Below are positions 9,561 through 49,298 of a stretch of 64,000 nucleotides of DNA, one piece after another. Within the stretch, counting starts at the first letter, position 1. Every line of letters begins with the position of its first letter. Made by a program: the position numbers and the translations under genes. The stretch covers positions 224,001-288,000 of the forward strand of contig CAWDVW010000005.1 in the NCBI GenBank assembly GCA_963805855.1, given 5' to 3'. The notes under the pieces were generated by a model. It made no database searches, was not told where the DNA came from, and was given only the letters and a program-made list of their open reading frames with translations. This DNA is from Candidatus Dadabacteria bacterium (GTDB lineage Bacteria > Desulfobacterota_D > UBA1144 > Nemesobacterales > CSP1-2).

Positions 9561-9698
9561 TGTTCTATAAAGTTTGAATTCTATTTCTGGTTGAGTAAAG
9601 CTAAGTTAAAGAAAAAGTAAATTTAGTTTATTAATGATTTTAGACTTCAATAGAAAATAACAGAAGGGATAAATTGCAAAAATATTCTGAAATAATTT

Positions 9699-26686: not shown

Positions 26687-26972
26687 GAGCTTCCCTACTC
26701 ACTGAAATAAACCCACCACCCACGAATACAAATCGCAGCAAGTACCGTGCCAATGAACATTCAATTCATGTTTCTAATTACATGCCAAGTCATCTGCGGT
26801 GTATGCTTCGGCACAAGATATGATAACTTAAGCTGTGCCCAAATATTAAGCAGAAAAACCTATTTAATAAGCATTCATTTGTCGTATGTCATGAGTCGCA
26901 GGGTTCAAGAAGCTTTAAAAAGCTTGAACCCCCGATTTTTTTATCCACATATAATAACGGTAAATATTAATA

Positions 26973-32148: not shown

Positions 32149-32345
32149 GAAACTATTCCCCGAGGGCTAATAGTTGAACTTTCTAAGAACATAGATCCTC
32201 ATTTGTATCAAGCCCGGAAGCGACTCATAAGTAGGATTCATCCCTGGCGAAAATAATGGGTACCAATCCAAAAAAACATGGATACCCGATCAATGAATTC
32301 GGGCATCAGGAATTCTTGTCACGCGCAAATACAACTACGTTATAA

Positions 32346-32375
32346 TAAATCCTTTTAAAAATTTCTCTCGTCTAA
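32346..32375 (+). promoter_or_regulatory. Putative ECF sigma promoter (aquaporin)
   Basis: TAAATCC-N16-CGTCTAA ending 9 nt before the ATG; identical boxes and spacing at 34705-34734. Confidence 0.6.
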
Positions 32376-32384
32376 ATAACTCAA

Positions 32385-33212
32385 ATGATCAATGCACTTC
32401 GCCAACATTGGCCTGAATATTTGATGGAAGCGGCGGGACTCGGAATATTCATGATTTCAGCCTGCGTGTTTACAATCCTATTGGAGCATCCGGGGTCTCC
32501 TGTGCGAATGGCTATAAACGATCCTTTTGTCAGGAGGTTCCTGATCGGAGTAGCCATGGGTCTTACCGCGATTGCCATTATCTATTCGCCATGGGGTAAG
32601 CAATCAGGTGCACACATAAATCCATCGGTAACACTAACCTTCCTGCGTTTAGGTAAAGTGAAGTCATGGGATGCCGTGTTTTACATCATTGCGCAGTTTA
32701 CTGGAGCACTCATTGGAGTTACCTTGGTCGTGGCTCTTGTCCGACACCTCATCACCCATCCTTCGGTCAATTTCGTTGATACCCTTCCAGGTTCCAGAGG
32801 AACAATCGTTGCCTTCATTGCCGAATTGGCAATCTCATTTATTCTCATGATGGTCATTCTGATCGTTTCCAACACAAACAAAATAGCTCGGTACACCGGT
32901 ATCTTCGCCGGAATACTGGTCGCTACCTATATCACCCTTGAGGCGCCTCTCTCCGGCATGAGCATGAACCCAGCCCGCACATTTGGATCTGCTATACCAG
33001 CCCATCATCTGATGTACCTGTGGGTCTATTTCACGGCTCCGGTCCTGGGAATGCTTTTGGCGTCGGAAGTTTACATCAGAGTGATGGGACTGAGCAGCAT
33101 TTCGTGCGCAAAGCTTCACCACCAAAATGATAAACGCTGCATCCACTGCGGCTATCCCGGCGCAATAAAATCCGCAGAATTCAATGCAACAATACATAAG
33201 GCGTATGTATGA
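32385..33212 (+). CDS. MIP-family channel (aquaporin) with Cys/His C-terminal tail
   Basis: SGAHINPS and SMNPART loops, six hydrophobic segments; tail CAKLHHQNDKRCIHC. Confidence 0.9.
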   Translation: MINALRQHWPEYLMEAAGLGIFMISACVFTILLEHPGSPVRMAINDPFVRRFLIGVAMGLTAIAIIYSPWGKQSGAHINPSVTLTFLRLGKVKSWDAVFYIIAQFTGALIGVTLVVALVRHLITHPSVNFVDTLPGSRGTIVAFIAELAISFILMMVILIVSNTNKIARYTGIFAGILVATYITLEAPLSGMSMNPARTFGSAIPAHHLMYLWVYFTAPVLGMLLASEVYIRVMGLSSISCAKLHHQNDKRCIHCGYPGAIKSAEFNATIHKAYV

Positions 33213-33447
33213 ATGTTATTGAACAATCAGGTCTGCTGCGAGGTAATAACCCCGTCCGAACTGAACTCACTCGAAGAATGTCATGCCTTATGCATCTTCA
33301 TACTTCGACAAGCTCATCATGTGCGGGTAATTTTTAATGATGCTGAATTGGATAGTGCTTATTATGGAAAAGGCAAAAATTAATAAGCAAATCGGCAAAT
33401 TAAAATTTCAGAAGGGTATTGAGAGTTTCTAAAATCGTAACGAACTT

Positions 33448-33477
33448 CAGATCCAAAGTATCCTTATTTACGTAAAT
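33448..33477 (+). promoter_or_regulatory. Possible weaker ECF promoter (msrAB)
   Basis: CAGATCC-N16-CGTAAAT; same ATCC-N16-CGT core. Confidence 0.35.
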
Positions 33478-33500
33478 TTTAGGTTGGGAGGCTGAAAGTC

Positions 33501-34610
33501 ATGATAAAAGTATTTGTAATCGCGATCCTTGCAGTAATTCTATTGTTCGTATACGCAAAATTTAATAAAAGTGACCATAATCCATCTATCCGGGCAGAGG
33601 ATTTGCAAGACCAAAATCTGGAAAAAGCGACCTTTGCAGGTGGCTGCTTCTGGTGTATGGAACCACCCTTCGAAAAACTGGAAGGCGTTTCGGCAGTAAT
33701 ATCTGGTTATACCGGGGGACAAAAAAAGAATCCTACCTATGAAGAGGTTTCTTCTGGTGGAACCGGGCACTTAGAATCTGTCGAGGTCCTCTACGATCCG
33801 TCAAAGATAACATATTCTGAACTACTAGACGTGTTCTGGAAGCAGATAGATCCGACCGACCCCAACGGTCAATTCGTTGATAGAGGCTCTCAGTACCGAT
33901 CGGCGATCTTCTATCATAACGACGAGCAAAAACGTCTGGCTGAAAAATCAAAGGAAGCGCTGGACAAATCTGGAAAATACGACAAACCCATTGTCACAGA
34001 GATTGTTAAAGCCTCTGAATTTTACAGGGCGGAGGATTATCACCAGGATTTCTATAAAAAGAATCCCGTAAGATACAAAAGCTATAGACACTTTTCCGGG
34101 CGCGACAAGTACATCAAGAAGATATGGGGTGATGAAATGAAAACAAAAACTTCAGAGAACAAAAACCAAACCTACAACAAACCGAGCCAAGAAGAACTCA
34201 AGAAAAAATTGACCCCAATTCAGTATGAAGTTACTCAGAATAACGGTACCGAGAGGCCGTTCAGCAACGAGTACTGGGATAATCACAGAGAAGGAATTTA
34301 CGTAGACATTGTTTCAGGCGAACCACTTTTCAGTTCGCTGGACAAGTTTGAATCCGGCACCGGATGGCCCAGCTTTACCAAGCCACTCGAGAAAGAGAAT
34401 ATTGTCGAAGGGCAAGACAACAGTTTATTCATGTCCAGGACCGAGCTCCGAAGCAACAACGCAAATTCCCACCTCGGACATGTATTTAATGATGGACCGC
34501 AACCGACAGGACTCCGATATTGTATCAACTCCGCAGCACTCCGCTTTATCCCGAAAGAAGATTTAGCGAAAGAAGGGTACGGAGAATATCAGAAACTTTT
34601 TGAAAAGTAA
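33501..34610 (+). CDS. msrAB: Exported bifunctional methionine sulfoxide reductase MsrA-MsrB
   Basis: N-terminal TM/signal; AGGCFWC, AEDYHQ; GTERPF, GWPSF, HLGHVF, RYCINS. Confidence 0.95.
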
Positions 34611-34704
34611 GAATTCAAATTTATGCACGGCCGATTGCGCTCTGTGTGGAATCAGGCTGAATACCATCGGATAGGTTTTACATAACACAAAATCTCCAGA
34701 TTGT

Positions 34705-34734
34705 TAAATCCTTCTCGAAAATTTAAACGTCTAA
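34705..34734 (+). promoter_or_regulatory. Putative ECF sigma promoter (DM13-GMC operon)
   Basis: TAAATCC-N16-CGTCTAA about 105 nt before the DM13 start. Confidence 0.6.
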
Positions 34735-34839
34735 CATTACCATAGTACAATTGATTGATGATTAATCTAATTTAGTGTTTAATGAAAGATGTGTCGGTCT
34801 TGAAATTGAAATTACAAAAAACTTGGAGGAGCCCAAATT

Positions 34840-35343
34840 ATGAATATACGTAATTTAGTAATTGTCATTGTTTTGATAATGATATTTGTCCTCTGGTATT
34901 TGTTCCGTCCTGAAAGGATTTTCATAAGCAAGACCGTTGACGAGGAGTTTCCCGGAACGACGGCGGTAGAAACGACCCAATCCGAAAACGAACCCAGGCT
35001 CCTTTACAATGGGAGCTTTCACGGTGTCGCACATGAAACAAAAGGAGCTGCCTCGATCTACCAGTTGCCAGATGGCAAGCAGGTACTGCGCTTTACAGAA
35101 TTTGAAACCTCGAATGGTCCAGACGTGCAGGTCTATCTGGTCGCAGCCGAGGATGCCAACGACAATGACACGGTAAAGAACGCCGGATTTATTCATCTTG
35201 CTGCACTCAAAGGGAATGTCGGCGATCAGAACTATGATCTGCCATCTGATATCGATTACAATAAATACAAAGCAGTAACAATCTGGTGTCGTAGGTTTGG
35301 GGTAAACTTCGGCACCGCTCCGTTAAAGCCGAATGCAGGTTAA
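34840..35343 (+). CDS. DM13 domain protein, membrane anchored
   Basis: GSF...HETKG, NGPDVQVYL, LKGNVGDQNY, IWCRRFGVNFG. Confidence 0.9.
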   Translation: MNIRNLVIVIVLIMIFVLWYLFRPERIFISKTVDEEFPGTTAVETTQSENEPRLLYNGSFHGVAHETKGAASIYQLPDGKQVLRFTEFETSNGPDVQVYLVAAEDANDNDTVKNAGFIHLAALKGNVGDQNYDLPSDIDYNKYKAVTIWCRRFGVNFGTAPLKPNAG

Positions 35344-35354
35344 GGAGCTGGGAA

Positions 35355-36926
35355 ATGAAAGCCGAAAATCAATATGACGTAATTATAATAGGATCCGGAG
35401 CAGGCGGCGGTACTCTGGCACATCATTTGGCTCCTTCGGGAAAGAGGGTATTGCTGCTGGAACGAGGCGACTATGTGCCCAGAGAAAAGGACAACTGGAA
35501 CCCTGTCGCCGTCAACGTGGAGGCAAAATACAATACCAAAGAGGTATGGCGAGATAAGGATGGTAAAGAACTGCACCCCCATACAAACTACTTTGTAGGC
35601 GGTAATACGAAGTTCTACGGCGCTGCGCTATTCCGCCTGCGCAAGGAAGATTTCGGTGAGATCGCCCACCACGGAGGTATTTCTCCGGCCTGGCCTCTTA
35701 GCTACGATGACCTTGAGCCCTATTATACTAAAGCCGAACAGATCTATCATGTACACGGCAAGCGCGGTGAAGATCCGACTGAACCCCATTCTGAAACACC
35801 ATACCCACATCCGCCCGTAAGCCATGAGCCGCGCATAAAGCAGCTTAGTGATGACTTTTCGAGTCATGGCCTCAATCCATTTCATACGCCCCTTGGGGTC
35901 ATGCTGGATGAACAGAACCCCCAGACCAGCCGCTGCATTCGCTGCAATACCTGTGATGGGTTTCCGTGCCTTGTGTATGCGAAGTCCGATGCCCATGTGT
36001 GCTGTGTGGAACCCGCCCTTCAGAATTCTAATGTAACATTGCTGAGAAATTCCTTTGTCACGAAGCTGGAGACCGGTCCCACGGGACGAGATATCTCCAG
36101 GGTTCATGTTAAACGGAACGGCTCAACAGAAAGTTACTCGGGGAATATCGTGGTGGTGTCATGCGGAGCGATAAACTCTGCAGCATTGCTGCTGCGCTCC
36201 GCAAACGACAAGCATCCGAACGGCCTGGCGAACGGCTCCGATGTCGTCGGAAGGCACTATATGGGTCACGTAAATTCGGTGCTGATGGCGATCTCAAAAT
36301 GTCCCAATCCAACCGTGTTCCAGAAGACCCTCTCGGTAAACGACTTCTATTTCGGCTCAAAGGAATGGGAATACCCAATGGGCCACATCTCTTTTGTCGG
36401 CAAGCTTGATGCAGAAACACTCAAGGCCGGGGCGCCTGCACTTACTCCGAAATGGACTCTTAAGTACATGGCCGGTCACTCGCTTGATTTCTGGCTCACA
36501 TCAGAAGACCTACCCGATCAAGAAAACCGGGTGACCTTGGATGGTGAAGGAAATATTGTGCTGAAATACAAACCGAACAACGAAGAGGGTCATAAGCGAC
36601 TGATCGCTAAACTTGAAAGTCTGATGAATCAGCAGTCGAAGTGCTCTGTTCATGGGCATGAATGTCATCAGGGTTTATTTGCGCGAAACCTGTTTATCGG
36701 TCAGCGTATTCCGCTCGCCGGTGTTGCCCATCAGAACGGTACTATTCGGTTTGGAAATGATCCAAAAACGTCAGCTCTCGATATTAACTGTAAGGCACAC
36801 GAAGTTGATAACCTATACGTAGTTGATGCCAGCTTTTTTCCCTCGTGCGGCGCGGTGAATCCCGGCCTGACAATCATGGCAAATGCTCTGAGAGTGGGCG
36901 ATCACATTCTTGAGCGACTGGGGTAA
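35355..36926 (+). CDS. GMC-family FAD oxidoreductase
   Basis: IIGSGAGGG, VGGNTKFYGA, CIRCNTCDGFPC, AHQNGT, VVDASFFP, NPGLTIMANALR. Confidence 0.9.
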   Translation: MKAENQYDVIIIGSGAGGGTLAHHLAPSGKRVLLLERGDYVPREKDNWNPVAVNVEAKYNTKEVWRDKDGKELHPHTNYFVGGNTKFYGAALFRLRKEDFGEIAHHGGISPAWPLSYDDLEPYYTKAEQIYHVHGKRGEDPTEPHSETPYPHPPVSHEPRIKQLSDDFSSHGLNPFHTPLGVMLDEQNPQTSRCIRCNTCDGFPCLVYAKSDAHVCCVEPALQNSNVTLLRNSFVTKLETGPTGRDISRVHVKRNGSTESYSGNIVVVSCGAINSAALLLRSANDKHPNGLANGSDVVGRHYMGHVNSVLMAISKCPNPTVFQKTLSVNDFYFGSKEWEYPMGHISFVGKLDAETLKAGAPALTPKWTLKYMAGHSLDFWLTSEDLPDQENRVTLDGEGNIVLKYKPNNEEGHKRLIAKLESLMNQQSKCSVHGHECHQGLFARNLFIGQRIPLAGVAHQNGTIRFGNDPKTSALDINCKAHEVDNLYVVDASFFPSCGAVNPGLTIMANALRVGDHILERLG

Positions 36927-37099
36927 AGAGAAATGGCGCTTCACCCTGCGACCCTTCAACCCTTCGACTGGGCTCAGGGCTCAGCGTGAGCGGACAAAAG
37001 TCACTTAGATTATTGGCGGTTTACGGTTCATGCTTAGCTAGTCGAAGCACGGAAGCTTTTTTGGTGTCCTGCAAGATACAATGCATTTGCATATACGAA

Positions 37100-38206
37100 A
37101 TGACGAAGCTCACACTAATTGAAATGACAACTCCAGTTTCAGCTAGATCCAAGATTTCTTTTTTATCGTTTCGTTTCATTCCTCTCACCGTACTGCTCGT
37201 TCTTTCGTATTCAATCGCTCTTAGCCCTTGCTCTCCCGCCGCTTGGTCACAGCAGCCATCCAGCAAAACACGGGTAAAAGCCGTTGATACCATCGGTATG
37301 ACCGTCTCGGATATGGATCGTTCCATAGATTTCTATACCAGTGTTCTTACTTTCGAAAAGGTTTCGGATGTCGAGGTCTGGGGACCCGAGTACGAGCACC
37401 TTCAGGGGATCTTTGGCATACGTATGCGTGTCGCGCGTTTGAAGATTGGTGATCAGTTCATCGAGTTAACCGAATATCTAACTCCTAAGGGTAGGCCTGT
37501 ACCAATCGATTCTCGAAGCAATGATAAATGGTTTCAGCACATAGCAATCGTTGTAGATGACATGGATAAAGCATATGAGCATCTTCGTAAGTACAAGGTT
37601 CAGCACGCTTCTACTGCCCCTCAGACACTTCCAGACTGGAACAAGGCCGCCGCCGGAATAAAAGCCTTTTATTTTAAGGATCCCGACGGGCATAATCTAG
37701 AGATCATATACTTCCCTCCCGGAAAAGGTGATTCAAAATGGCAAGTTCCCACCGACAAATTATTTTTGGGGATAGATCATACGGCGATTGTCGTAGGCGA
37801 TACAGATCAAAGCCTGAAGTTTTACCGAGACTTAATGGGGATGGACGTCAAGGGCGGAAGTGAAAATTATGGAACAGAGCAGGAGCACCTGAATAACGTA
37901 TTCGGAGCACACTTGGAGATAACTGGTCTTCGGACTCCAATGGGGCCGGGAATTGAATGTCTGGAATACATCTCACCCGACGACGGCCGCCGAATTCCTG
38001 TTAATGAGCGCGCAAACGACATAATGCACTGGCAGACAACCCTCGTAGTAGATGACGTAGAGGATGCAGCAAAGCAAATCAGAGCGGGAGATTACAAATT
38101 TATCTCATCCGGGGTCGTGGAACTTCCGGATAATAAACTTGGTTTTAGAAGAGGATTCCTAGTTCGTGACCCGGACGGTCACGTTATGAGATTAGTGGAA
38201 AAATAA
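37100..38206 (+). CDS. VOC/glyoxalase-family protein (two VOC repeats), probably exported
   Basis: [43 protein letters not shown]; hydrophobic segment ending AAWS; start uncertain (37100 or 37124). Confidence 0.8.
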
Positions 38207-38238
38207 TTGAGCGACACATAATTCGCAGGAGGTTAAGT

Positions 38239-39345
38239 ATGAAGGCAATAGCCGTTATACCAGGGAGACCAAATTCAATTCATTTGCGAGAGGTGCCGAA
38301 ACCAAAACTAACCGATATTCCAAATGGACGCGGAGTATTGGTCAAGCTACTCCGCGTCGGTGTAGATGGGACTGATAAAGAAATCAATGCCGCAGAATAT
38401 GGCGCTGCACCGCCGGGGGATGATTACCTCATAACCGGGCATGAATCCTTTGGAATCGTAGAAGAGGTCGGGCCGAATGTCAGCGAGTTACAACCGGGCG
38501 ATTATGTTGTAGCCACGGTGAGACGTCCGGGGAATTCTCCCTACGACAAGATCGGGATGTATGACATGACAACCGATGACGTGTACTTTGAGCGTGGCAT
38601 AAATCTTCGTCACGGGTATCTGACAGAATATTATGTTGATGATCCGGAATACATAGTAAAGGTACCACAGGGGCTCAGGGAGGTCGGGGTCGTTCTTGAA
38701 CCTACAAGCGTGATAGAAAAGGGCATAGTCCAGGCTTATGAGATCCAGCGCAGGCTTAGAATTTGGAACCCAAGGCGAGCCGCAGTGCTTGGAGCGGGAA
38801 CAATCGGGATACTCGCAACCATGGCCCTCCGTCTGAGGGGCTTAGAAGTCTGCACATTCGGAAGGACCAAGCCACCGTACTTAAATTCAGATCTATTGGG
38901 GGAAATAGGAGCCTGCTATCATAGCACGGATGACACTACTCTCACCGATTCTGCCAAAGAGCATGGTCCATATAATCTCATTTTTGAAGCGACAGGATTT
39001 TCGCCAATTGTCTTTGAAGCAATGAACGTACTGGGGAAAAACGGTGTCCTTGTGCTTTCAAGTGTGACCGGCGGAGGAAGAACAATAGAGGTTCCTGCGG
39101 ATATGATTAATCTGGGATTCGTACTCGGAAACAAGGTTGTGGTAGGCACGGTGAACGCAAACAGGGAGTATTTTGAGATAGGGGTCAAGGATCTTTCACA
39201 GGCAGACCTCGAATGGCCCGGCTGGCTCTCAAAGCTTCTGACCCATCCCGTCAAAGGGCTTGAAAATTACGAGGAATTGATAAATACACTCACAAACGCA
39301 AAGGGGGCAATTAAGGTTTTTTGCGAAGTGGCACCATTGACGTGA
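38239..39345 (+). CDS. Zn-dependent glucose 1-dehydrogenase (MDR family, archaeal-type)
   Basis: GVDGTD, GHES, TVRRP, ERGI...[24 protein letters not shown]. Confidence 0.85.
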
Positions 39346-39348
39346 ATT

Positions 39349-39426
39349 GATACAAGATACATGATGCAAGATGCAAGATATGAGATACATCTTTTGTCAT
39401 GCATACTGAATCGCGCATCATGCATC
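39349..39426. repeat. GATRCAN heptamer tandem array with inverted counterpart
   Basis: gatacaa gatacat gatgcaa gatgcaa gatatga gatacat, then tgaatc gcgcatc atgcatc. Confidence 0.7.
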
Positions 39427-39448
39427 AGTTGATTATTGGAGGAAAACC

Positions 39449-42145
39449 ATGACTAACGAAGAAAAAAGGCTTGAGGAAGACCTTAACAGAAAAGCCTATT
39501 GGAAGCGTTGGGGACCATATTTGAGTGAACGACAGTGGGGGACAGTAAGAGAGGATTATAGTCCCCATGGAGCAGCGTGGGACTATCTTACACACGACCA
39601 AGCACGATTTCGGACATACAGGTGGGGAGAAGACGGTATTGCCGGTATTTCAGACAACCACCAGCGGCTTTGCTTTGCAATTGCACTTTGGAATGGAAAT
39701 GACCCGATTATAAAGGAAAGACTTTTCGGCTTAACCGGAAGTGAAGGCAATCACGGCGAAGACGTAAAGGAATACTATTTTTATTTAGATAGCACTCCAA
39801 CCCATTCATATATGAAGTATCTCTACAAGTATCCGCAAGACGCCTTTCCATACTCCCAGCTCGTGGAAGAGAATAGGCGAAGGAGCCGGCGGGATTTTGA
39901 ATTTGAACTCATGGACACCGGTGTATTTCGCGACGACCGCTATTTCGATGTATTCGTGGAATACGCCAAGGATGAGCCAGATGACATACTCATTAAAATT
40001 GCCGTCGCCAACCGGGGACATGAAGAGGCCATTTTACACCTATTACCAACCATATGGTTTCGCAATACATGGACCTGGAATGGTGACGTTGATAAACCCT
40101 ATCTAAAGGAATTAAAGAAAAAGGGGGGCAAGGCCTTAGTGGAAGTTTCTCACCCCGGCCTTGGAAAAATGTGGCTGCACTGCGACAATCCGGATGAAAT
40201 TCTCTTCACAGAAAATGAAACCAACCATGAAAGACTATACGGGATTAATCACGGAAACCTCTACTGTAAAAGCGGTATTGATGAATACATTGTGCACAAC
40301 AAAAAAGAGGCAGTGAATCCAGACAAGATAGGGACAAAAGCGTCGCCCCATTATATGCTACGCATTGGGTCAGGAGAGAGACGTACCATACGGCTACGTC
40401 TTAGCAATAAAAAGGATTTGCCTGACCCACTCGGAGATCAGTTCGAATTAATTTTCAATGATCGTTTGAAGGAGGCGGACGAATTTTACAGCAGCCTTTC
40501 ACCCTTCCCGTTAAACGAAGAATTGAGGAGTGTCCAGCGACAGGCTTTCGCGGGCATGCTCTGGAGTAAGCAGTTCTACCACTACGTAGTAGAAGATTGG
40601 CTAAAAGGGGACCCCTCTACCCCAAGACCTCCTACGGAGCGCAACAGTGGCAGGAATCGCGATTGGATTCATCTCTATAACGACGACATCCTTTCGATGC
40701 CCGATAAATGGGAATACCCGTGGTTCGCTGCATGGGACCTGGCATTTCACACAATTCCTCTCGCAATGATCGATCCGGAATTTGCAAAACGTCAACTGAT
40801 ACTTCTTACGCGGGAATGGTATATGCATCCCAACGGTCAACTTCCTGCATATGAATGGGCTTTTGGCGATGTTAACCCGCCCGTTCATGCCTGGGCAGCG
40901 CTCCGTGTATATAAAATAGAGAAAAAGATGTACGGCCGCGACGACAGACTATTCTTAGAAAGGGTTTTTCAGAAGCTACTTCTCAATTTTACATGGTGGG
41001 TGAACAGAAAGGACTCAGAAGGCAAAAACGTATTTGAGGGAGGGTTTCTGGGATTAGATAACATCGGCGTTTTTGATAGGAGCGCAAAACTTCCAACAGG
41101 TGGAAAGATTGAGCAGGCAGACGGAACGAGCTGGATGGGAATGTATTGTTTGAATATGCTGGCTATAGCCCTAGAATTGGCCAAATATAATCCGAGCTAT
41201 GAAGACATCGCCAGCAAGTTTTTCGAGCATTTTCTATACATAGCAGACGCAATGAATTTGCTTGGGGAAGGCAGAGGGCTCTGGGACGAAGAAGATGGCT
41301 TCTACTACGACGTCCTGAATTTGCCAGATGGCCGCCACCTTCCTATGAAAGTCCGTTCAATGGTGGGGCTTATCCCACTGTTCGCCGTTCAGACAATGGA
41401 AGCCGATACCCTCAATATGCTTCGAGGTTTTAAAGGACGGCTTGAATGGTTTATAGATAATCGCGAGGAACTTAAGAAAAATGTCGCCTGCATGAGAACA
41501 CCCGGCGCTGGCGAAAGGAGACTTCTCTCGATTGTGAACCAGGAGAAGCTTAGGCGCATACTCCAGAAGATGCTTGATGAAAATGAATTCCTCGGGCCGT
41601 ATGGAATACGCGCCATTTCCAGGTTTCATGAGTCAAATCCATATGTGTTCCACGTTAATGGTCAAGAATACAGGGTCGATTATGAACCGGCCGAATCCTC
41701 GAGCGGTCTCTTCGGCGGCAATTCCAATTGGCGGGGACCTGTCTGGTTCCCGGTCAATTTTCTCCTAGTAGAGGCGCTGCAAAAGTTTCATTACTATCTC
41801 GGTGACGGATTCAAGGTTGAGTGTCCCACCGGTTCAGGTAAAGAAATGACTCTTTGGGAGGTTGCATCCGAATTATCTCACAGGCTTATGAGCATCTTCC
41901 TTAGAGACTCATCGGGTAGGAGACCGGTATACGGTGGAATTGAAAAGTTCCAGAATGATCCTCACTGGCGTGATTTTATACTTTTCCATGAATACTTTCA
42001 TGGAGATAACGGAGCCGGAATCGGTGCTAGTCATCAGACGGGCTGGACGGGAGTCGTGGCAAAGCTTATACAGCAATGTGGAGAATACTGCCTGCAAGAT
42101 AAGGCACCTGAACAGATAAAAATTCAGGAAGAGAAAATAACGTAG
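39449..42145 (+). CDS. MGH1/GH63-like (alpha/alpha)6 glucosidase
   Basis: [64 protein letters not shown]. Confidence 0.85.
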
Positions 42146-42204
42146 AAGAAGATGACGTCGACGGGTCGAGAGATCTGATGACAGTTTAAAATATGATTAA
42201 ATCT

Positions 42205-42257
42205 GCAGGGAACGCATGCCTGTCCTGAAGCCTGGCCGAAGGATATGCGTTCCCTAC
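42205..42257. repeat. GTAG-type REP with nested CCTTCG..CAGGACAGG unit
   Basis: Near reverse complement of 54551-54601. Confidence 0.65.
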
Positions 42258-42312
42258 TCAGATGAATTTTAAACAATAATTAGCACACAAGTACCCGGAG
42301 GTTCATTTAATA

Positions 42313-44313
42313 ATGTTTGTCAAATTCGGGCGCGAAGCTTGCGGTTACCCGGAATCAGCCGAAAACAGGGAATGGTTGTCTGCCAACGGGATTGGTGGTT
42401 ACGCCTCCGGTACCGTCGCAGGGGTTCTTACTCGACGCTATCACGGTTTGCTAGTAGCCGCTCTCAAACCCCCTCTCGGCAGAACCCTTCTGCTTTCCAA
42501 ACTCGACGAGAGCGTAACTTACGACGGATCGGAATACGAGCTATTCACAAACCGCTGGAGCGATGGGACCGTATCGCCCCGAGGCTTTCTCAATATAGAG
42601 AGCTTCGATCTCGACGGCACCATACCGGTTTGGAGATTTGCATGCGCCGATGCCTTAATGGAAAAACGTATATGGATGAAGCAGGGCGCAAACACCACCT
42701 ACATTCGCTACACATTATCCCGCGCAACCGCGCCAGTGACCCTGTCGATTAAGGCACTAGTTAATTATCGTGATTACCACGGCACGACGCACGCTGGTGG
42801 CTGGAACATGAACATTGAAAATGTCACCGAAGGAATCCGAATAGTGGCCTATTCCGAGGCTACGCCCTTTTATATTCTATCAGATAAGGCCGAAGCTCAA
42901 TCCACGCATGACTGGTATTATGGCTTCAATCTATCCCTAGAGCAATACCGCGGTCTCGACCACCTAGAGGATCATCTGCACGCCGCAACATTTAGAGCAA
43001 CCCTTCACCCGGGTGAGTCTATCACGTTCGTGGCAAGTACCGATGAGAATGCAGATTCAAATGGCGAACGTGCGCTGGTATCGCGAATGAGCTATGAAAA
43101 GGAACTCATAGAACAGCTACGCTCAACAATACCGGAAGACATAAATCATATTCCAGCCTGGATAGGTCAACTTGCACTTGCGTCGGATCAGTTTATTGCC
43201 GATAGGCCCTTGCAAGAAGAGCCTGACGGCAAAACCGTAATCGCGGGCTACCACTGGTTTGGCGACTGGGGTAGAGACACAATGATCAGTCTTCCCGGTC
43301 TAACTATTTGTAACGGCAGGCCGGACGTGTGTCGCTCCATTTTGCGAACATTCGCAAAATACGTCGACCGTGGAATGTTACCTAATAGGTTTCCGGATTC
43401 AGGTGAACAACCAGAATACAACACTGTAGACGCAACGCTTTGGTACTTTGAAGCAATTCGAGCATATCATGAAGCTACCGGGGATGATGATTTTATCGTC
43501 GAACTATTTCCAGTTCTAATAGAAATACTTGACTGGCACATTCGCGGAACCCGGTACAACATTCATGTCGACCCGCAGGATGGCTTGCTCTTTTCCGGTG
43601 AAAGGGGTGTCCAATTAACATGGATGGATGCCAAAATCGGCGACTGGGTTGTGACACCTCGGACAGGAAAGACGGTCGAGGTAAATGCACTATGGTACAA
43701 CGCATTGCGAACAATGGTTAAGGTAGCAAAACGGATTAAAAAACCATATAAAGATTATGAATCAGCCGCCAAGCTTACCTTCAAAGGATTCAGTCGGTTT
43801 TGGAATGAAAAAGATCGATTCTGTTATGATGTCATAGATGGACCTGGCGGAACCGATCCAACATTAAGACCAAACCAGATATTTGCCGTTTCACTACCTG
43901 AAAGCCCACTAACTACTCCACAGCAAAAGGCAGTGGTAGATATTTGCGCTCTTCGTCTACTCACGTCACATGGACTTAGGAGCCTTGATAATAGGAATCC
44001 TCAATATAAAGGACATTATGGAGGAGACCAGTTTCATAGGGATAGTGCATACCATCAGGGAACAGTATGGGGATGGTTGTTGGGACCTTTTGTTCTAGCA
44101 CACCTTAAAGTCTATAATGACCCAATTAGAGCTAGAGAATTTCTTGAACCAATGTGTAATCAATTAGTTACACATGGCCTTGGGACACTGAGCGAAATCT
44201 ACGACGGAGATGCACCCTTTTCTCCAAGGGGATGTATCGCCCAGGCTTGGACAGTCGCTGAGGTATTGAGGGCCTGGCTAGCCACAGGGAGCTCATCTCG
44301 AAAAAAGATGTAG
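42313..44313 (+). CDS. Amylo-alpha-1,6-glucosidase (glycogen debranching enzyme, archaeal/bacterial type)
   Basis: REWL..NGIGGYASGT, TRRYHGLL, AGYHWFGDWGRDTMI, LTWMDA, RPNQ, AYHQGTVWGW, QAWTVAE. Confidence 0.9.
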   Translation: MFVKFGREACGYPESAENREWLSANGIGGYASGTVAGVLTRRYHGLLVAALKPPLGRTLLLSKLDESVTYDGSEYELFTNRWSDGTVSPRGFLNIESFDLDGTIPVWRFACADALMEKRIWMKQGANTTYIRYTLSRATAPVTLSIKALVNYRDYHGTTHAGGWNMNIENVTEGIRIVAYSEATPFYILSDKAEAQSTHDWYYGFNLSLEQYRGLDHLEDHLHAATFRATLHPGESITFVASTDENADSNGERALVSRMSYEKELIEQLRSTIPEDINHIPAWIGQLALASDQFIADRPLQEEPDGKTVIAGYHWFGDWGRDTMISLPGLTICNGRPDVCRSILRTFAKYVDRGMLPNRFPDSGEQPEYNTVDATLWYFEAIRAYHEATGDDDFIVELFPVLIEILDWHIRGTRYNIHVDPQDGLLFSGERGVQLTWMDAKIGDWVVTPRTGKTVEVNALWYNALRTMVKVAKRIKKPYKDYESAAKLTFKGFSRFWNEKDRFCYDVIDGPGGTDPTLRPNQIFAVSLPESPLTTPQQKAVVDICALRLLTSHGLRSLDNRNPQYKGHYGGDQFHRDSAYHQGTVWGWLLGPFVLAHLKVYNDPIRAREFLEPMCNQLVTHGLGTLSEIYDGDAPFSPRGCIAQAWTVAEVLRAWLATGSSSRKKM

Positions 44314-44331
44314 GCACGAATAAATATTCAT

Positions 44332-44359
44332 GATGCAGGATGCACGATGCAGGATACAA
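44332..44359. repeat. GATRCAN heptamer tandem array
   Basis: gatgcag gatgcac gatgcag gatacaa. Confidence 0.6.
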
Positions 44360-44721
44360 AAAAGCCACCATCCCCATCCCCATCCTCACCTTCCCCTTCA
44401 AAGGGGAAGGGATTTTGCAAACCTATACAAACCTCTTTGAAGAAGATATAAGTTTTCCTCCTCCGAAACGAACCGATCGGCCAGAGCTCAGTCGAAGGCC
44501 GTCCTGAATCCGCGAAAGACGCTTTCATGATTTATGAAGCGATTGACCCTTCGATTCAACTCAGGACAGGGTCAGGGTGAACAGATTAATTTGTATTTTC
44601 TTTACCCACGACGGAACCCGCAGACCCTATCTGCTTATCAGTATCCAAAATGAAGGGGTGATGCAAATTCGAGAAACGGACGCTACATTGGATTTAATTT
44701 AACCGTTCGGTTTTCTCTACG

Positions 44722-46668
44722 CTATGGATTCTTGAGTTGTTTCTTTATGCCGAGTTTTTGCATTCGAGACCGGAGTGTACTTGGATTCATCTTCAAGATC
44801 GAAGCCGCACCCCTTTTCCCGTCGATCACCCAGTCGGTCTTCTCAAGAATATCAATTATATGAGATCTTTCCACATCCTCCAGGGATTGATCAATTGTCA
44901 ATTCAGATAAAACGTTTAAACCCAACAGAGATTCATCAATCTGAATCTCGGATCCGTGAGAAAGTACAACAGCGCGCTCAATCACGTTTTGTAATTCTCT
45001 TATGTTTCCGGGCCAGGGATAAGAAGTTATCCTGCCCATAGTGTCCTTGGAAATCGGTTTAAAATTTTTATTCATCTTTTTAGCAAACTTAGTGAGAAAG
45101 AAATTGGTCAATAGTGGAATATCAGATCTTCGTTCTCTCAGTGGCGGCACATCGATGGGAAAAACATTTAGCCTGTAGAAAAGATCAGAGCGGAACGACC
45201 CTTTCTTAACGGCGTCGGTAAGATTTCGATTTGTAGCAGCAATTACACGTACATCCGCGCTGATAGTCTTACTACTACCAACGCGCTCAAATTCACCTTC
45301 CTGAAGTACACGCAGTAGCTTGACTTGAGTGTCAAGGGGCAGTTCGCTAACCTCATCCAAAAATATTGTGCCTCCGTCAGCAAGCTCAAACCGTCCAACT
45401 CTCTGTTGCAAAGCTCCTGTGAAAGCCCCTTTCTCATGTCCAAACAGTTCACTTTCAACTAGACCTGCAGATATTGCCCCGCAATTTACCTTTACAAGCG
45501 GCCGACCTTTACGATTGCTAAGGTTATGAATAGCTCTAGCGATAAGCTCTTTACCAGTTCCGGTCTCTCCGTATATCAACACGGTAGATTCAGATGTTGC
45601 GACTTTCTCCACACTCCGGAGCGTTTCTTTGAGTGATTCGCTCTGGCCGACGATCTCCTCGAAATTGTATTCAGTTTTGATTTCTTCCTGAAGATACACA
45701 TTTTCATCCTCAAGACGGTTTTTGAGTTGCTCAACTTCTAATAGAGCCTCCTGTAGAGCCTGCTCAGCATTCTTTCGCTCGGTTATGTCCTCTACCATCG
45801 CAAACGTATACATGAAATTCCCGTCGTCGTCGCGGATAGATGAACAGATTGTATTTGCCCAAATGAGCCGACCATCCTTTCTAACATAACGTTTCTCGAC
45901 TCGGAAATCGCCGATTTCCCCCTCCACGAGCTCAGTGAACAGTCTTTTACTCTCGTCAAGGTCTTCTGTGAAGGTTATTTCCTTAAAACTCATGCCCTTG
46001 AGCTCCTCCTCGCTGTATCCGAGCATATCCTGAAAAGAATTGTTGATAAGTCGGAATCTCCCGATGGCGTCGTTGATCGAAACTCCGATAGGGGCCGATT
46101 CAAAAAGAGCCCTAAAGCGCTCTTCACTTTTTCTTAGATTATGCGCGGCCTTCTCGCGCTCCATTTCAGCTCCGGCACGCGCTGCAAAAATCTGAAGAAC
46201 CGACAGTCCGTGCGGCTTGTCGGCCATCGGTCCCCGATCTAGGATAGCAATGTGTCCAAGTATGTTCTGGTATGAATCGCGAATAGGAATACCCAGAAAA
46301 CTCTCCGCTCCCCATTCCACCAGGCCAATATCCTTGGGGAATAGCGTCTGAAGAGAATTAGGATACAAGCATACATTTCCATTGATGACATTTTCACACG
46401 GGGTCCCAGCCAGTGTATACTCAAAGTTCTCTCCGAAGTCTTTCCCCATCCAAAATGCTAGGGTTCGAACCCTGGTAGAGGCTTCATCTGTACACTGTGT
46501 AATGAACGCATAGCTAACATTAAGTGCAGAAGCAAGATGATGCACGAGTGAGCGAAAAAAATCTGAACCGGTAACCGCAGCCGTTCCCTCCGCAAGATGC
46601 TGGAGCAATTCCAGAGACTTAATGTCTTGCTGCGGGAGCGTATCTGCGTCTTTCCGCCCGTCAGTCAT
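44722..46668 (-). CDS. Sigma54-dependent enhancer-binding protein (GAF-PAS-AAA+-HTH, FhlA-like)
   Basis: GETGTGKE, ESELFGHEKGAFTGA, FRSDLFYRLNVFP, WPGNIRELQN, HTH PSTLRSRM; N-terminal GAF and PAS/PAC; probable start MTDGRK at 46668 (frame open to 46812). Confidence 0.92.
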   Translation of the reverse strand: MTDGRKDADTLPQQDIKSLELLQHLAEGTAAVTGSDFFRSLVHHLASALNVSYAFITQCTDEASTRVRTLAFWMGKDFGENFEYTLAGTPCENVINGNVCLYPNSLQTLFPKDIGLVEWGAESFLGIPIRDSYQNILGHIAILDRGPMADKPHGLSVLQIFAARAGAEMEREKAAHNLRKSEERFRALFESAPIGVSINDAIGRFRLINNSFQDMLGYSEEELKGMSFKEITFTEDLDESKRLFTELVEGEIGDFRVEKRYVRKDGRLIWANTICSSIRDDDGNFMYTFAMVEDITERKNAEQALQEALLEVEQLKNRLEDENVYLQEEIKTEYNFEEIVGQSESLKETLRSVEKVATSESTVLIYGETGTGKELIARAIHNLSNRKGRPLVKVNCGAISAGLVESELFGHEKGAFTGALQQRVGRFELADGGTIFLDEVSELPLDTQVKLLRVLQEGEFERVGSSKTISADVRVIAATNRNLTDAVKKGSFRSDLFYRLNVFPIDVPPLRERRSDIPLLTNFFLTKFAKKMNKNFKPISKDTMGRITSYPWPGNIRELQNVIERAVVLSHGSEIQIDESLLGLNVLSELTIDQSLEDVERSHIIDILEKTDWVIDGKRGAASILKMNPSTLRSRMQKLGIKKQLKNP

Positions 46669-46929
46669 TTTTTCTAATTCCTTCGAGCTTTCAGAAAACG
46701 AATTTACATCAGGATCGACCGATTGCTCACAATTTCGCCCCTGATGTTGCACTGCTCCTCGTCGATTATTCTTTTTAATCCTAATATTAGTAGGACCACG
46801 CTCGTAAGCCATAAAGAACTTCTAAAATATTCCGACAATGCCTTCCTAAAGCGTATATTATAGTGCTCCTATCGCCCTCAATCAATAGGGTGCGCCAGTA
46901 TTAGCCGCTTTCAGCCCGGACCACGTGAT

Positions 46930-46969
46930 ATTTCGTACCGCTCTCGACATTTCGTGACAAATATTTCGT
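46930..46969 (+). promoter_or_regulatory. Putative enhancer (UAS) sites: three ATTTCGT repeats
   Basis: ATTTCGT at 46930, 46949 and 46963, about 90-130 bp upstream of the -24 box. Confidence 0.5.
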
Positions 46970-47055
46970 CTATCGAAAACCAATCAATCCGGACCCATAG
47001 ATAAAACACAACAAATTGAATAACTTACGAATATGTACCAAAGCCTTAACCTTTT

Positions 47056-47070
47056 TGGCACAGCGCTTGC
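47056..47070 (+). promoter_or_regulatory. Sigma54 -24/-12 promoter
   Basis: TGGCAC-AGCGC-TTGC, exact GG-N10-GC spacing, divergent from the bEBP and upstream of STAS/ECF. Confidence 0.85.
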
Positions 47071-47138
47071 GAACCATATTACACTGAACGCGGATAAGAT
47101 TGGATTAAAAAAGCAGATTTAGAAAGGGACTCAAACTA

Positions 47139-47441
47139 ATGTTTAAAATCACTAAGACCAAAGAGCATGACAACACAATAAACCTGAGAATGGATGGCAA
47201 GCTAGTTGAAGAATGGCTCTCAGAATTTGAAACGCTATATCTTAAAATCAGAAGTGAGGACTATAAGAGAATTATAATAGACCTCTCGGGTGTCAGTTTT
47301 ATTGCTGATAACGGGATTGATTTCATACAAAAAATAAAGGATGTGAGGATAGACATAATCAACTGTTCTCCTTTTATCGAATCGCTACTGGGCGACTTGG
47401 TAAACAGGGATAGGATCGAGAAACAGAAATTAAAGGGTTAA
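47139..47441 (+). CDS. Small STAS-like protein
   Basis: LRMDGKL...IIIDLSGVSFIADNG...INCSPFI pattern. Confidence 0.7.
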   Translation: MFKITKTKEHDNTINLRMDGKLVEEWLSEFETLYLKIRSEDYKRIIIDLSGVSFIADNGIDFIQKIKDVRIDIINCSPFIESLLGDLVNRDRIEKQKLKG

Positions 47442-47451
47442 GGAGATTGAA

Positions 47452-48111
47452 ATGGATACAATTAACATTGTCGATCAGCCAACATCTTTAGGAAAGAATT
47501 CCAGGCCGTTCTTGGATCAAAAGGCGTACTTTGAAAATGAAGAAACTGTACTCATAGAGCAGCTTAAGAACGGTGATCACGGAGCATTCGAGGCGATATT
47601 CGGTCTCTATGCAAACAAGGTTTACAACCAGGCTCTCAGGCGGTTAGGGAATAGTTCTGATGCCGAGGACGTGGTTCAGGAAGTGTTCCTGCTTGTATAT
47701 AGAAAGTCGAAGAGTTTCCAAGGTAAATCAAAGTTTTCTACTTGGCTCTACCGACTCACGATGAATGCGGCGATCACAAAGCTCCGCCAGAGCAAAGACG
47801 AGTGCGTTTCAATCGATGACTTCCTACCAAAGTTCAGCGACGATGGTCATCACTCAGCAAGACCTGTGGTCGATTGGTCTCAAGAGGTTGATAAGTTGGC
47901 GAGCAATCTGGAGTTATCCCGTGTAATAAGTCAGGCAATAGATCAGCTCCAGCCTTTAGATAAGGCAGTGCTAGTTTTGAGCGATTTAGAAGAAATATCT
48001 AACCGCGAGATTAGTGAAATACTCGGACTGAGCATTTTAGCGGTGAAAGCTCGACTCCATCGTGCGCGGCTATTTTTACGGGGAAAGCTAGCGGCCCATC
48101 TAGGATACTGA
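47452..48111 (+). CDS. ECF RNA polymerase sigma factor
   Basis: DAEDVVQEVF, FSTWLYR (region 2); EISEILG..AVKARLHRAR (region 4). Confidence 0.93.
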   Translation: MDTINIVDQPTSLGKNSRPFLDQKAYFENEETVLIEQLKNGDHGAFEAIFGLYANKVYNQALRRLGNSSDAEDVVQEVFLLVYRKSKSFQGKSKFSTWLYRLTMNAAITKLRQSKDECVSIDDFLPKFSDDGHHSARPVVDWSQEVDKLASNLELSRVISQAIDQLQPLDKAVLVLSDLEEISNREISEILGLSILAVKARLHRARLFLRGKLAAHLGY

Positions 48112-48189
48112 AGTTCTCAAGCAATCTCAAAGTTTAGCTCGCGAATTTCCTGTCGATTCTGCGGCGTTATTCATTAACGTGAAAAAGTT

Positions 48190-48219
48190 AGCATCTTACT
48201 TCAAACCACGAGCGTCTAA
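48190..48219 (+). promoter_or_regulatory. Putative ECF promoter (anti-sigma gene)
   Basis: AGCATCT-N16-CGTCTAA upstream of the zf-HC2 gene. Confidence 0.5.
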
Positions 48220-48242
48220 TAAAATGCTAATCAATAGTACGC

Positions 48243-48491
48243 ATGATTTGGTCTTTAATGAGAAGAAAAAAAGTAAATAGGACTGAACAAAGACAATTCA
48301 AGTTTGATTGTAAAAAGGTTACATCTTTGATACAAGATTATATAACAGGCGAACTGGAACCCGATATTGCATCGGAATTAGAGAAACACTTAAGCATTTG
48401 TCCTGACTGCGTCGCTTTTCTGAATACTTACAAAAAAACGATCGGCCTGGTCAATTCCTTTTACAACAAAAGATCTCAGAAACTGAAATAG
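48243..48491 (+). CDS. Soluble zinc-binding anti-sigma factor (zf-HC2/ZAS)
   Basis: C...LIQDYITGEL...HLSICPDC (HxxxCxxC); follows the ECF gene; no TM segment. Confidence 0.85.
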   Translation: MIWSLMRRKKVNRTEQRQFKFDCKKVTSLIQDYITGELEPDIASELEKHLSICPDCVAFLNTYKKTIGLVNSFYNKRSQKLK

Positions 48492-49286: not shown

Positions 49287-49298
49287 AAGACTTTCTCC

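Follow-up and report, generated by a model that had tools for sequence, protein, structure and literature searches.

In Pseudomonas syringae, HrpR/HrpS and sigma-54 transcribe the gene of HrpL, a sigma factor of the extracytoplasmic function (ECF) class that belongs to group ECF32, and two publications describe a circuit that leads from an enhancer-binding protein via a sigma-54 promoter to an ECF sigma factor and its regulon and that includes built-in negative feedback (PMC8999054; PMC5263251). A comparable arrangement was found in a 64,000-nt stretch of a Candidatus Dadabacteria contig (CAWDVW010000005.1, positions 224,001 to 288,000; hereafter the window, about 44% G+C), in which the gene of a sigma-54 activator is divergent from a STAS-ECF operon that is followed by the gene of a zinc-finger anti-sigma factor. 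Together with eight neighboring genes, here termed cargo genes, they probably constitute a two-tier cascade, in which the sigma-54 activator would induce the STAS-ECF operon and the ECF sigma factor would, in turn, switch on a stress regulon from ECF-type promoters of the neighboring units. As the step from sigma-54 to an ECF sigma factor is established for HrpL, the proposed wiring has a precedent, and an earlier note on this DNA, according to which no characterised circuit with this wiring was known, went too far.

Individual parts of the module also resemble those of other systems. SigW and RsiW of Bacillus subtilis are the nearest solved relatives of the window ECF sigma factor (5wuq_A, E 2.5e-27) and, weakly, of the anti-sigma factor (5wuq_C, E 0.28, the only solved relative found). 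RsiW spans the membrane and is removed by regulated proteolysis, sigW is autoregulated, and the SigW consensus comprises a TGAAAC-type -35 and a CGT-type -10 element, similar to the motif described below (TGAAAC/TGCATC, about 16 nt, CGT). The SigR-RsrA system of Streptomyces features a small soluble anti-sigma factor with a C-x25-H-x3-C-x2-C motif, as does the window, and includes methionine-sulfoxide reductases in its regulon; it is not known to contain a STAS protein or a sigma-54 layer.

An alignment of 21 ECF relatives was used to retrieve 80 related loci from species-representative genomes, the best-scoring of at least 566 confirmed matches, and their gene content was determined by tblastn with the window proteins. 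Group A (L001-L059, ECF sigma factors 49-90% identical) spans Thermodesulfobacteriota, Dadabacteria, Binatia, Methylomirabilota/NC10, "Deltaproteobacteria," Chloroflexota, Entotheonellaceae, Acidiferrales and Udaeobacter, as well as single Ignavibacteriales and Spirochaetia bins. A sister clade, group B (L060-L080), has ECF sigma factors of 43-47% identity and consists mostly of Nitrospinota. A STAS gene is located directly ahead of the ECF gene in 34 of the 59 group A loci. Cargo homologues were detected in 43 of the 59, and 30 of these contain two or more. STAS, activator and cargo genes are absent from all 21 group B loci, despite their greater average length. The earlier note's proposal that the regulatory module and the cargo genes belong together is thus in agreement with other genomes and was not refuted by them.

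Architecture of the predicted sigma-54-dependent STAS-ECF operon

The regulatory module of the window comprises the following features:

44722-46812, minus strand: sigma-54 activator with GAF, PAS, AAA+ (GAFTGA) and HTH_8 domains (Pfam, translation, structure model)
46926-46969, plus strand: putative enhancer, 87-130 nt before the promoter, with three GAYATTTCGT-like direct repeats
47056-47070, plus strand: sigma-54 -24/-12 promoter TGGCACAGCGCTTGC (exact TGGCAC-N5-TTGC match)
47139-47441, plus strand: short STAS protein (100 aa), encoded by the leading gene of the sigma-54 operon (PF01740, marginal, 22.8 vs 22.6 bits)
47452-48111, plus strand: SigW-like ECF sigma factor (Sigma70_r2, Sigma70_r4_2, Sigma70_ECF)
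48189-48222, plus strand: predicted ECF-type promoter before the anti-sigma gene, GCATCT-N16-CGTCTAA (exact match; score 25.7)
48243-48491, plus strand: soluble zinc-finger (ZAS-type) anti-sigma factor of 82 aa (PF13490, E 1.8e-9)

All genes named in the earlier note were recovered by Pfam, and its reading of an activator with an intact GAFTGA loop, of a divergent -24/-12 element and of the order STAS, ECF sigma factor and soluble HxxxCxxC anti-sigma factor behind it was confirmed by translation and exact match. The -24/-12 element carries GG at -24 and GC at -12 in the correct spacing and is situated 69 nt ahead of the STAS start codon. Exact TGGCAC-N5-TTGC matches occur twice in the window, where 0.06 would be expected, and two were reached in none of 100 shuffles. 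A -24/-12 site of the form TGG-N9/10-TGC was found 28-127 nt ahead of the STAS gene in 32 of the 34 STAS loci; the two exceptions are L010, which exhibits a GGGCAT variant, and L040, whose sequence is masked by N at this position.

The second exact match in the window, TGGCACGGTACTTGC (26738-26752, minus strand), is located about 52 nt before a gene for an AMP-binding, acyl-CoA-ligase-like protein (24959-26686, minus strand). Another AMP-binding gene, coding for 575 aa, is found at 21403-23130, and no activator gene was seen beside either of them.

Upstream of the STAS promoter, the putative enhancer contains two exact copies of GAYATTTCGT, a sequence that occurs three times in the whole window against 0.31 expected, and a third copy, AAATATTTCGT, that was read by eye. 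Of 34 regions compared (the window and 33 loci, with L040 left out), 30 contain the corresponding 8-mer, GATATTTC/GAAATATC, in the 220 nt that precede the promoter. The 8-mer occurs at conserved distances, either -130/-111 or -97/-78, and often in inverted pairs such as GCGATATTTCGCAA...TTGCGAAATATCGC. An activator gene lies within 3.5 kb upstream in 33 of the 34 STAS loci, the exception being L023 with less than 200 nt of upstream sequence. For group A as a whole, this holds for 38 of 59 loci, or 32 of those 44 whose upstream sequence exceeds 3 kb. These arrangements support the view that the activator and its putative enhancer were conserved as one unit with the sigma-54 promoter and the STAS-ECF operon. 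No Sigma54 domain (rpoN) was found among window open reading frames (ORFs) of at least 120 aa, and the description of the cascade as "self-contained" in the earlier note is not supported.

The AAA+ domain of the activator was identified by Pfam (PF00158, E 1.2e-73) and is accompanied by an HTH_8 DNA-binding domain. Its GAF domain escaped scans of the whole protein; a scan restricted to residues 55-225 detected it (PF01590, E 2.8e-5, 25.1 bits; cut-off 22.4). A structure model of this part (predicted local distance difference test score, pLDDT, 92) matched GAF domains in the PDB. Over 30 loci, the GAF part is 43-88% identical, with Cys107 and Cys139 invariant and Cys148 nearly so. Because of this conservation and the two invariant cysteines, GAF activators throughout the loci probably sense the same signal. 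A PDB sequence search with the GAF part returned nothing useful, and the fold search returned generic GAF domains (PtsP, Nlh2, phytochromes). The free-methionine-sulfoxide reductase 1f5m appeared only at rank 27 of the fold search, and a candidate role as an fRMsr-like sensor of methionine sulfoxide was dropped as unsupported. In L008 (Dadabacteria; 8666-9115, minus strand), tblastn revealed in-frame stops and a scrambled stretch in the GAF part, which stem from gene decay or else from misassembly.

A different input was found in five Methylomirabilota loci (L011, 4392-11270; L014, L020, L035, L044). They carry a GAF/PAS histidine kinase, a REC-AAA+ activator and a sigma-54 promoter, downstream of which STAS is replaced by a REC-only protein plus a small secreted one, followed by the ECF sigma factor, two zf-HC2 proteins and an amylo-alpha-1,6-glucosidase (GDE). 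The REC-only protein is present in all five loci with a REC activator and in no others among the 80. Consequently, the link from sigma-54 to the ECF sigma factor appears to be kept while the input changes. From 78 ECF sequences, with L054, L056 and L057 omitted, a quick maximum-likelihood tree was computed (LG+G4; support by the Shimodaira-Hasegawa-like approximate likelihood ratio test, SH-aLRT, only) and rooted on group B. Both group A and the REC version are recovered as single clades, each with a support of 99. The STAS version occurs on both deep branches of group A, which requires at least six changes, three of them forced by well-supported branches. The STAS version is read as an old architecture with subsequent losses, for which the tree is too light to be decisive.

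Predicted ECF-type promoters and regulon

The ECF sigma factor (219 aa) matches region 2 and region 4 families only, with no region 1 or 3 family listed, and scores 101 bits against the TIGR02937 cut-off of 42.9. Its closest relative is a Thermodesulfobacteriota protein of 90% identity (P0001; locus L001), and its single cysteine is part of the DECVS stretch in the linker. Residues ~124-143, between regions 2 and 4, carry a strongly conserved linker sequence, LPKFxxDGHHxxRPVxDWS, and P126, F128, H133, H134, P138, D141 and W142 are among the residues invariant in 28 sequences. As the locus search made use of this linker motif, its conservation among the loci results partly from selection.

A gapped-dyad count in the upstream regions of cargo homologues, followed by pattern searches, identified the motif ATCY-N16-CGTCTAA. 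Three exact copies are present in the 64 kb, against 0.04 expected, and three were reached in none of 100 shuffles. They are located at 32349-32375 before the MIP gene, at 34708-34734 before the DM13 gene and at 48193-48219 before the zf-HC2 anti-sigma gene. In a matrix scan of the window, the three sites scored 20.7-20.9 bits and the next best site 14.8. The ECF-like motif proposed in the earlier note is therefore real, though it precedes transcription units and not every gene. The cargo genes and the promoters predicted before them are as follows:

32345-32378, plus strand: predicted ECF-type promoter before MIP, AAATCC-N16-CGTCTAA (exact match; 24.2 with the loci-trained matrix, 20.7 in the window scan)
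32385-33212, plus strand: MIP-family channel, aquaporin/aquaglyceroporin-like (PF00230, E 1.3e-31)
33501-34610, plus strand: MsrA-MsrB fusion (MsrAB) with an N-terminal membrane anchor or signal (PF01625 and PF01641, hydrophobic N-terminus)
34704-34737, plus strand: predicted ECF-type promoter before DM13, AAATCC-N16-CGTCTAA (exact match; 23.2 with the loci-trained matrix, 20.9 in the window scan)
34840-35343, plus strand: anchored DM13 protein (Pfam)
35355-36926, plus strand: GMC flavoprotein dehydrogenase (Pfam)
36986-38206, plus strand: two-domain VOC protein (Pfam)
38239-39345, plus strand: Glu_dehyd_C dehydrogenase, NAD(P)-glucose-dehydrogenase-like (Pfam)
39449-42145, plus strand: MGH1/GH63-like glycosidase (Pfam)
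42313-44313, plus strand: GDE_N and GDE_C, archaeal-type GDE (Pfam; TIGR01561, 442.5 bits against a cut-off of 364)

The -10 element of the MIP promoter ends about 10 nt ahead of the annotated ATG, so that either the mRNA would be nearly leaderless or translation starts at a codon further downstream. The arrangement of the DM13 promoter recurs in L007, and the promoter in the 131-nt gap between the ECF and anti-sigma genes is conserved in L001. GGAATTC/AATTCC-type -35 boxes, which had been read by eye before the MIP gene and an upstream oxidoreductase gene, were dropped due to inconsistent spacing.

Refinement of the matrix on the window and the group A loci yielded the consensus TGCATCnTTT-N13-C(A/G)TCTAA. 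At a threshold of 13 bits, it matched 160 sites on the strand of the ECF gene against 14 on the other; with the threshold raised to 20 bits, the ratio is 111 to 1. Some sites contain a SigW-like TGAAAC -35 element, and Binatia-type loci exhibit up to seven sites in series at intervals of approximately one gene length. ORFs located first behind sites of at least 18 bits were clustered into families, which were named from Pfam scans of representatives:

18 loci: zf-HC2
16 loci: protein of ~85 aa, no Pfam family
15 loci: glucose-dehydrogenase-like
12 loci: MIP
8 loci: secreted protein of ~116-120 aa
7 loci: protein of ~67 aa, no Pfam family
6 loci: protein of ~139 aa
5 loci: NTP-transferase (absent from the window)
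3 loci: HbpS-like (absent from the window)
2 loci: DM13
2 loci: GDE
2 loci: MsrP-like molybdopterin oxidoreductase (absent from the window)
1 locus: GH63
1 locus: ATP-dependent DNA ligase
1 locus: diadenylate cyclase

This distribution supports the prediction that ECF-type promoters precede cargo genes across the loci. In total numbers, group A contains homologues of the glucose-dehydrogenase-like protein in 30 of 59 loci, of MIP in 22, of GDE in 10 and of GH63 in 8, while VOC (7), DM13 (5), GMC (4) and MsrAB (3) are rarer.

The position of the sites relative to the ECF gene itself differs between the two groups. In 7 of the 21 group B loci, a site of at least 16 bits is located about 115-160 nt ahead of the ECF gene, the usual autoregulatory position. 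None of the 34 STAS loci has a site within 600 nt before the STAS gene, and 32 of them have at least one downstream of the ECF gene. It therefore seems that in the sigma-54 lineages autoregulation of the ECF sigma factor was replaced by enhancer-dependent transcription.

It is very improbable that the CGTCTAA-type promoters are read by another ECF sigma factor encoded elsewhere and lie next to this one by coincidence. A CGTC-type -10 element is common to many ECF groups, with ECF21, ECF35, ECF105 and ECF116 as examples listed in PMC7826278. However, the sites cluster beside this ECF family in many phyla and on its strand, the sister clade carries the motif ahead of its own ECF gene, and the matrix scores of all other sites in the window stay at or below 14.8 bits.

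According to the cascade proposed here, the activator would bind the GAYATTTCG repeats situated 87-130 nt ahead of the -24/-12 promoter and, upon a signal at its GAF/PAS sensor, would drive sigma-54 RNA polymerase to transcribe the STAS-ECF bicistron. The SigW-like ECF sigma factor would then direct the polymerase to (T)GCATC/AAATCC-N16-C(G/A)TCTAA promoters and thereby to three target units. The first would be the MIP gene, perhaps together with MsrAB, and the second the DM13-GMC-VOC-dehydrogenase unit, perhaps with read-through into GH63 and GDE. The third would be its own zinc-finger anti-sigma gene, whose product would exert delayed negative feedback and dampen the response. Our observations cover the sequence elements, which are more frequent than expected by chance, and the fact that they are conserved and occur together across phyla; we infer each of these binding and transcription steps from the sequence.

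Several observations weigh against this cascade. The frequencies describe a sample, and apart from the window the loci are mostly contigs of metagenome-assembled genomes (MAGs), for which misbinning is possible. The matrix was refined on the very loci in which its matches were counted, with the strand ratio and the sister clade as sole controls. Among the 25 group A loci without STAS, 22 also exhibit no site within 700 nt ahead of the ECF gene. Homologues of the dehydrogenase in Binatia-type loci share only 36-41% identity with it and need not be orthologous. In these loci, the anti-sigma gene mostly starts less than 30 nt after the ECF gene, and a separate anti-sigma promoter, as found in the window, L001 and Dadabacteria-type loci, is thus lineage-specific. 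Finally, no ECF-type site of at least 11 bits lies ahead of MsrAB, GH63 or GDE in the window, so that these genes would need read-through or other promoters. Within the window, the earlier note's assignment of the cargo genes to the ECF sigma factor is supported by the motif only for MIP and the DM13 unit.

The last point might indicate that the cascade is limited to MIP, the DM13 unit and the anti-sigma gene, with MsrAB, GH63 and GDE as neighbors expressed by sigma-70, in which case the term "glucan-mobilising" would be overstated. Such a small regulon is possible but, in our estimation, unlikely. In its favor, sigma-70-like hexamers are present at 33407-33435 and 39394-39421 (in a region with fewer such sites than shuffled sequences), and GH63 and GDE occur in only 8 and 10 of the 59 loci. 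On the other hand, homologues of GH63 (L008) and GDE (L011, L035, L044) are located directly behind ECF-type sites of their own in other lineages, and the order GH63-GDE-activator is retained in L001, L033, L040, L042 and L047. All eight cargo genes of the window share the plus orientation, and a generic terminator and sigma-70 scan, which yielded fewer sites than shuffles, found no convincing terminator between them.

The spacing of the cargo genes is variable. DM13, GMC, VOC and dehydrogenase genes form a tightly spaced unit (34840-39345, plus strand) with gaps of 11, 59 and 32 nt, and the gaps before MsrAB, GH63 and GDE are 288, 103 and 167 nt, respectively. Two intergenic regions contain short GATGCARGATGCA-type repeats, one at ~39360-39385 after the dehydrogenase gene and one at ~44331-44357 after GDE. 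An inverted repeat with 10-bp arms, GGGAACGCAT...ATGCGTTCCC, is located between GH63 and GDE (~42208-42254). Both kinds of repeats could be terminators or repeat elements.

With regard to the predicted products, the MIP protein scores below the cut-off of TIGR00861. MsrAB and DM13 probably both face the envelope, as both carry hydrophobic anchors at their N-termini. The nearest solved relative of the GMC protein is the Burkholderia FAD-glucose dehydrogenase 6a2u (E 1.6e-42), and its solved relatives are catalytic subunits of FAD-glucose and fructose dehydrogenase complexes. Similarly, the Glu_dehyd_C protein is related to archaeal NAD(P)-glucose dehydrogenases, with the Haloferax enzyme 2b5v as nearest solved relative (E 7e-57). 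Solved relatives of GDE comprise only the glucosidase part of eukaryotic debranching enzymes, and a PDB sequence search with GH63 returned no solved relative at E <=1e-5. Judged by this gene content, the regulon may serve the repair of oxidised methionine in the envelope, together with the liberation of glucose from glucan stores and the oxidation of this glucose to supply reductant.

Some genes of the related loci have no counterpart in the window. In Binatia-type loci (e.g., L030, 8452-8739; L028, 1366-1605), proteins of ~85 aa and ~67 aa and a second zf-HC2 protein, each behind its own ECF-type promoter, are encoded between the ECF and dehydrogenase genes; none of them is found in the window. 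In L005 (Dadabacteria, without STAS and activator; 9231-10850), a secreted 153-aa protein, which looks thioredoxin-like by eye, and a secreted MsrAB follow directly after the ECF and zf-HC2 genes, the MsrAB behind a weaker ECF-type site of 16.0 bits. The opposite strand after the window module (48576-52823, minus strand) codes for a DUF1318 lipoprotein-like protein and a YhdP/AsmA-like protein of 1174 aa. This pair is also located behind the ECF and anti-sigma genes in L007, and DUF1318 alone in L001, and therefore marks the chromosomal context of the lineage.

Possible roles of the anti-sigma factor and the STAS protein

The anti-sigma factor contains no hydrophobic segment and exhibits the motif C23-x25-H49-x3-C53-x2-C56, whose four residues are invariant in 28 of 28 sequences. 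Its gene follows the ECF gene at a distance of 131 nt, and a zf-HC2 gene is present in 54 of the 59 group A and 19 of the 21 group B loci. The protein would presumably bind the ECF sigma factor encoded next to it, and its motif might permit zinc/thiol switching. The gene ends in TAG (48489-48491) where L001 reads GAG, and the next 45 nt are in frame and conserved. The window protein thus lacks 16 C-terminal residues of its L001 counterpart, with an intact zinc-finger core; the TAG may represent natural variation or a sequencing error.

A zinc-thiolate anti-sigma factor could also act as a second input, as the earlier note had suggested: the activator would set the synthesis of the ECF sigma factor, oxidation of the anti-sigma factor would release it in the manner of RsrA, and both a GAF/PAS signal and thiol stress would be needed. 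We give this two-input gate only limited credence. It would be consistent with the invariance of the C-x25-H-x3-C-x2-C motif, the spacing of which equals that of RsrA, with a weak match to the RsrA model TIGR03988 (E 1.3e-4, 22 bits against a cut-off of 62.5), and with a regulon that includes methionine-sulfoxide reductases and HbpS-like proteins. However, the motif is shared by anti-sigma factors without redox sensing, for instance RsiW and ChrR, and the only solved relative found was the weakly matching RsiW. Moreover, the ECF-type promoter of the anti-sigma gene fits feedback at least equally well, and the gene behind it is as much a feedback arm as a second input.

The STAS protein belongs to a distinct class of short proteins, with 309 cluster representatives at E <=1e-10, almost all of 85-100 aa. 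Its structure model (pLDDT 81) matched the anti-sigma antagonists SpoIIAA and RsbV at template modelling (TM) scores of 0.73-0.77, the best PDB fold matches being SpoIIAA 1th8_B (E 1.6e-5, TM 0.73) and RsbV 6m36_B (TM 0.77). In the family alignment, no phosphorylatable Ser or Thr is conserved after the third strand. At the position which we take, judged by eye, to be equivalent to Ser58 of SpoIIAA, the window reads FIADNG and its relatives carry D, N, E, K or other residues. Neither a HATPase kinase nor a PP2C phosphatase domain was found among the 17 proteins encoded between 29 and 53 kb or in the rest of the window.

Since STAS occurs only together with a GAF-PAS activator and ECF/anti-sigma pairs also exist without it, two roles can be envisaged, namely that of an antagonist of the anti-sigma factor or that of a modulator of the input. 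In the latter case, the target of feedback by STAS would be the GAF-PAS activator, and that of the REC-only protein in the Methylomirabilota version would be the kinase, comparable to the action of PspA on PspF and of HrpV on HrpS. This assignment to the input module is tentative and somewhat doubtful. It would explain why an activator was seen in 33 of 34 STAS loci and why neither gene exists in the 21 loci of the sister clade. STAS was detected by tblastn in none of the other 25 group A loci (a diverged STAS was read by eye in L056), and 23 of these 25 loci and 19 of the 21 sister-clade loci have an ECF/anti-sigma pair without STAS. The confinement of the REC-only protein to REC-activator loci, the missing phosphorylatable serine and the lack of kinase and phosphatase domains among the neighbors point in the same direction. 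Conversely, the fold is nearest to that of anti-sigma antagonists, and in one protein cluster, P0067, STAS is fused to the ECF sigma factor, which points to the sigma side. The fusion was given little weight, as it is confined to this single cluster and no protein of fusion length (~300 aa) was found among the best 150 STAS-family representatives. A complex prediction for ECF sigma factor, anti-sigma factor and STAS, with STAS as the partner, returned scores of 0.01 and 0.00, with no controls run alongside.

A broader generalization would regard the two-tier cascade as a widespread design, in which sigma-54/enhancer input takes the place of ECF autoregulation and the first gene of the operon codes for a modulator matched to the sensor (a non-phosphorylatable STAS with a Cys-bearing GAF-PAS protein, REC-only with kinase/REC). 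Together with the ECF-driven anti-sigma factor, it would act as a feed-forward/feedback pulse generator. Its output, envelope methionine repair and the draining of glucan via two glucose dehydrogenases, would represent a general stress/dormancy program of Binatia, Dadabacteria, Methylomirabilota and Thermodesulfobacteriota. We consider this scenario in its entirety rather improbable.

Comparison with known systems

The proposed cascade would provide a concrete regulon, with promoter consensus, enhancer, sensor domain and targets, for MAGs of the almost wholly uncultured Binatia, Dadabacteria, Methylomirabilota and Thermodesulfobacteriota. It suggests that this ECF family traded self-activation for sigma-54 control, with an autoregulatory-type site kept in the sister clade, and it ties a STAS protein devoid of a phosphorylation site to a zinc-finger anti-sigma system. 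As the parts are compact and might be orthogonal, they are of possible interest for circuit building.

Searches of full-text literature outside subscription journals returned no description of an activator-STAS-ECF-zf-HC2 unit and yielded HrpL, BtrS-type systems and general reviews instead; in the same literature, no characterised precedent was found for a STAS protein without phosphorylation site in combination with a zinc-finger anti-sigma factor. A prior bioinformatic mention of the module may exist. A paper on the Desulfovibrio sigma-54 regulome was listed with no occurrence of "ECF" (PMC4641369).

Among classified ECF groups, the predicted promoter of ECF18 resembles the window motif, with TGCATCTT at -35 and CGTA at -10. 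This group is described as restricted to Proteobacteria and is characterized by two conserved cysteines in the sigma-4 region and a transmembrane RskA-like anti-sigma factor (Casas-Pastor 2021). An assignment of the window ECF sigma factor to ECF18 was rejected in view of its single cysteine in the linker, its soluble anti-sigma factor and its relatives in Dadabacteria, Binatia, Methylomirabilota and others. ECF19s7 and ECF19s18, compared by their description in the same source only, share a STAS protein at position -1 and a soluble zinc-finger anti-sigma factor, which, unlike that of the window, is fused to a mycothiol-isomerase domain (Casas-Pastor 2021).

The characterized systems differ from the window in several respects. 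In contrast to SigW-RsiW, the window combines a soluble 82-aa anti-sigma factor with an ECF gene that is located behind a sigma-54 promoter and has no ECF-type site ahead of it. The anti-sigma factor also differs from RsrA, as its score for the RsrA model is below the cut-off. Despite the common fold, the STAS protein is unlike SpoIIAA and RsbV, since it lacks the conserved phosphorylatable serine, no SpoIIAB/RsbW-type kinase or PP2C phosphatase is encoded among its neighbors, and the only anti-sigma factor nearby is of the zinc-finger type. The HrpL circuit (PMC8999054) is not known to include an anti-sigma factor, is controlled by HrpR/HrpS proteins devoid of sensor domains and governs a type III secretion regulon. 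The window cascade, by contrast, would comprise a GAF-PAS sensor, a STAS protein predicted to be co-transcribed with the ECF sigma factor, a zinc-finger anti-sigma factor and a stress/sugar regulon. Negative feedback, which acts via promoter occlusion in the HrpL system, is predicted to be exerted by the anti-sigma factor in the window.

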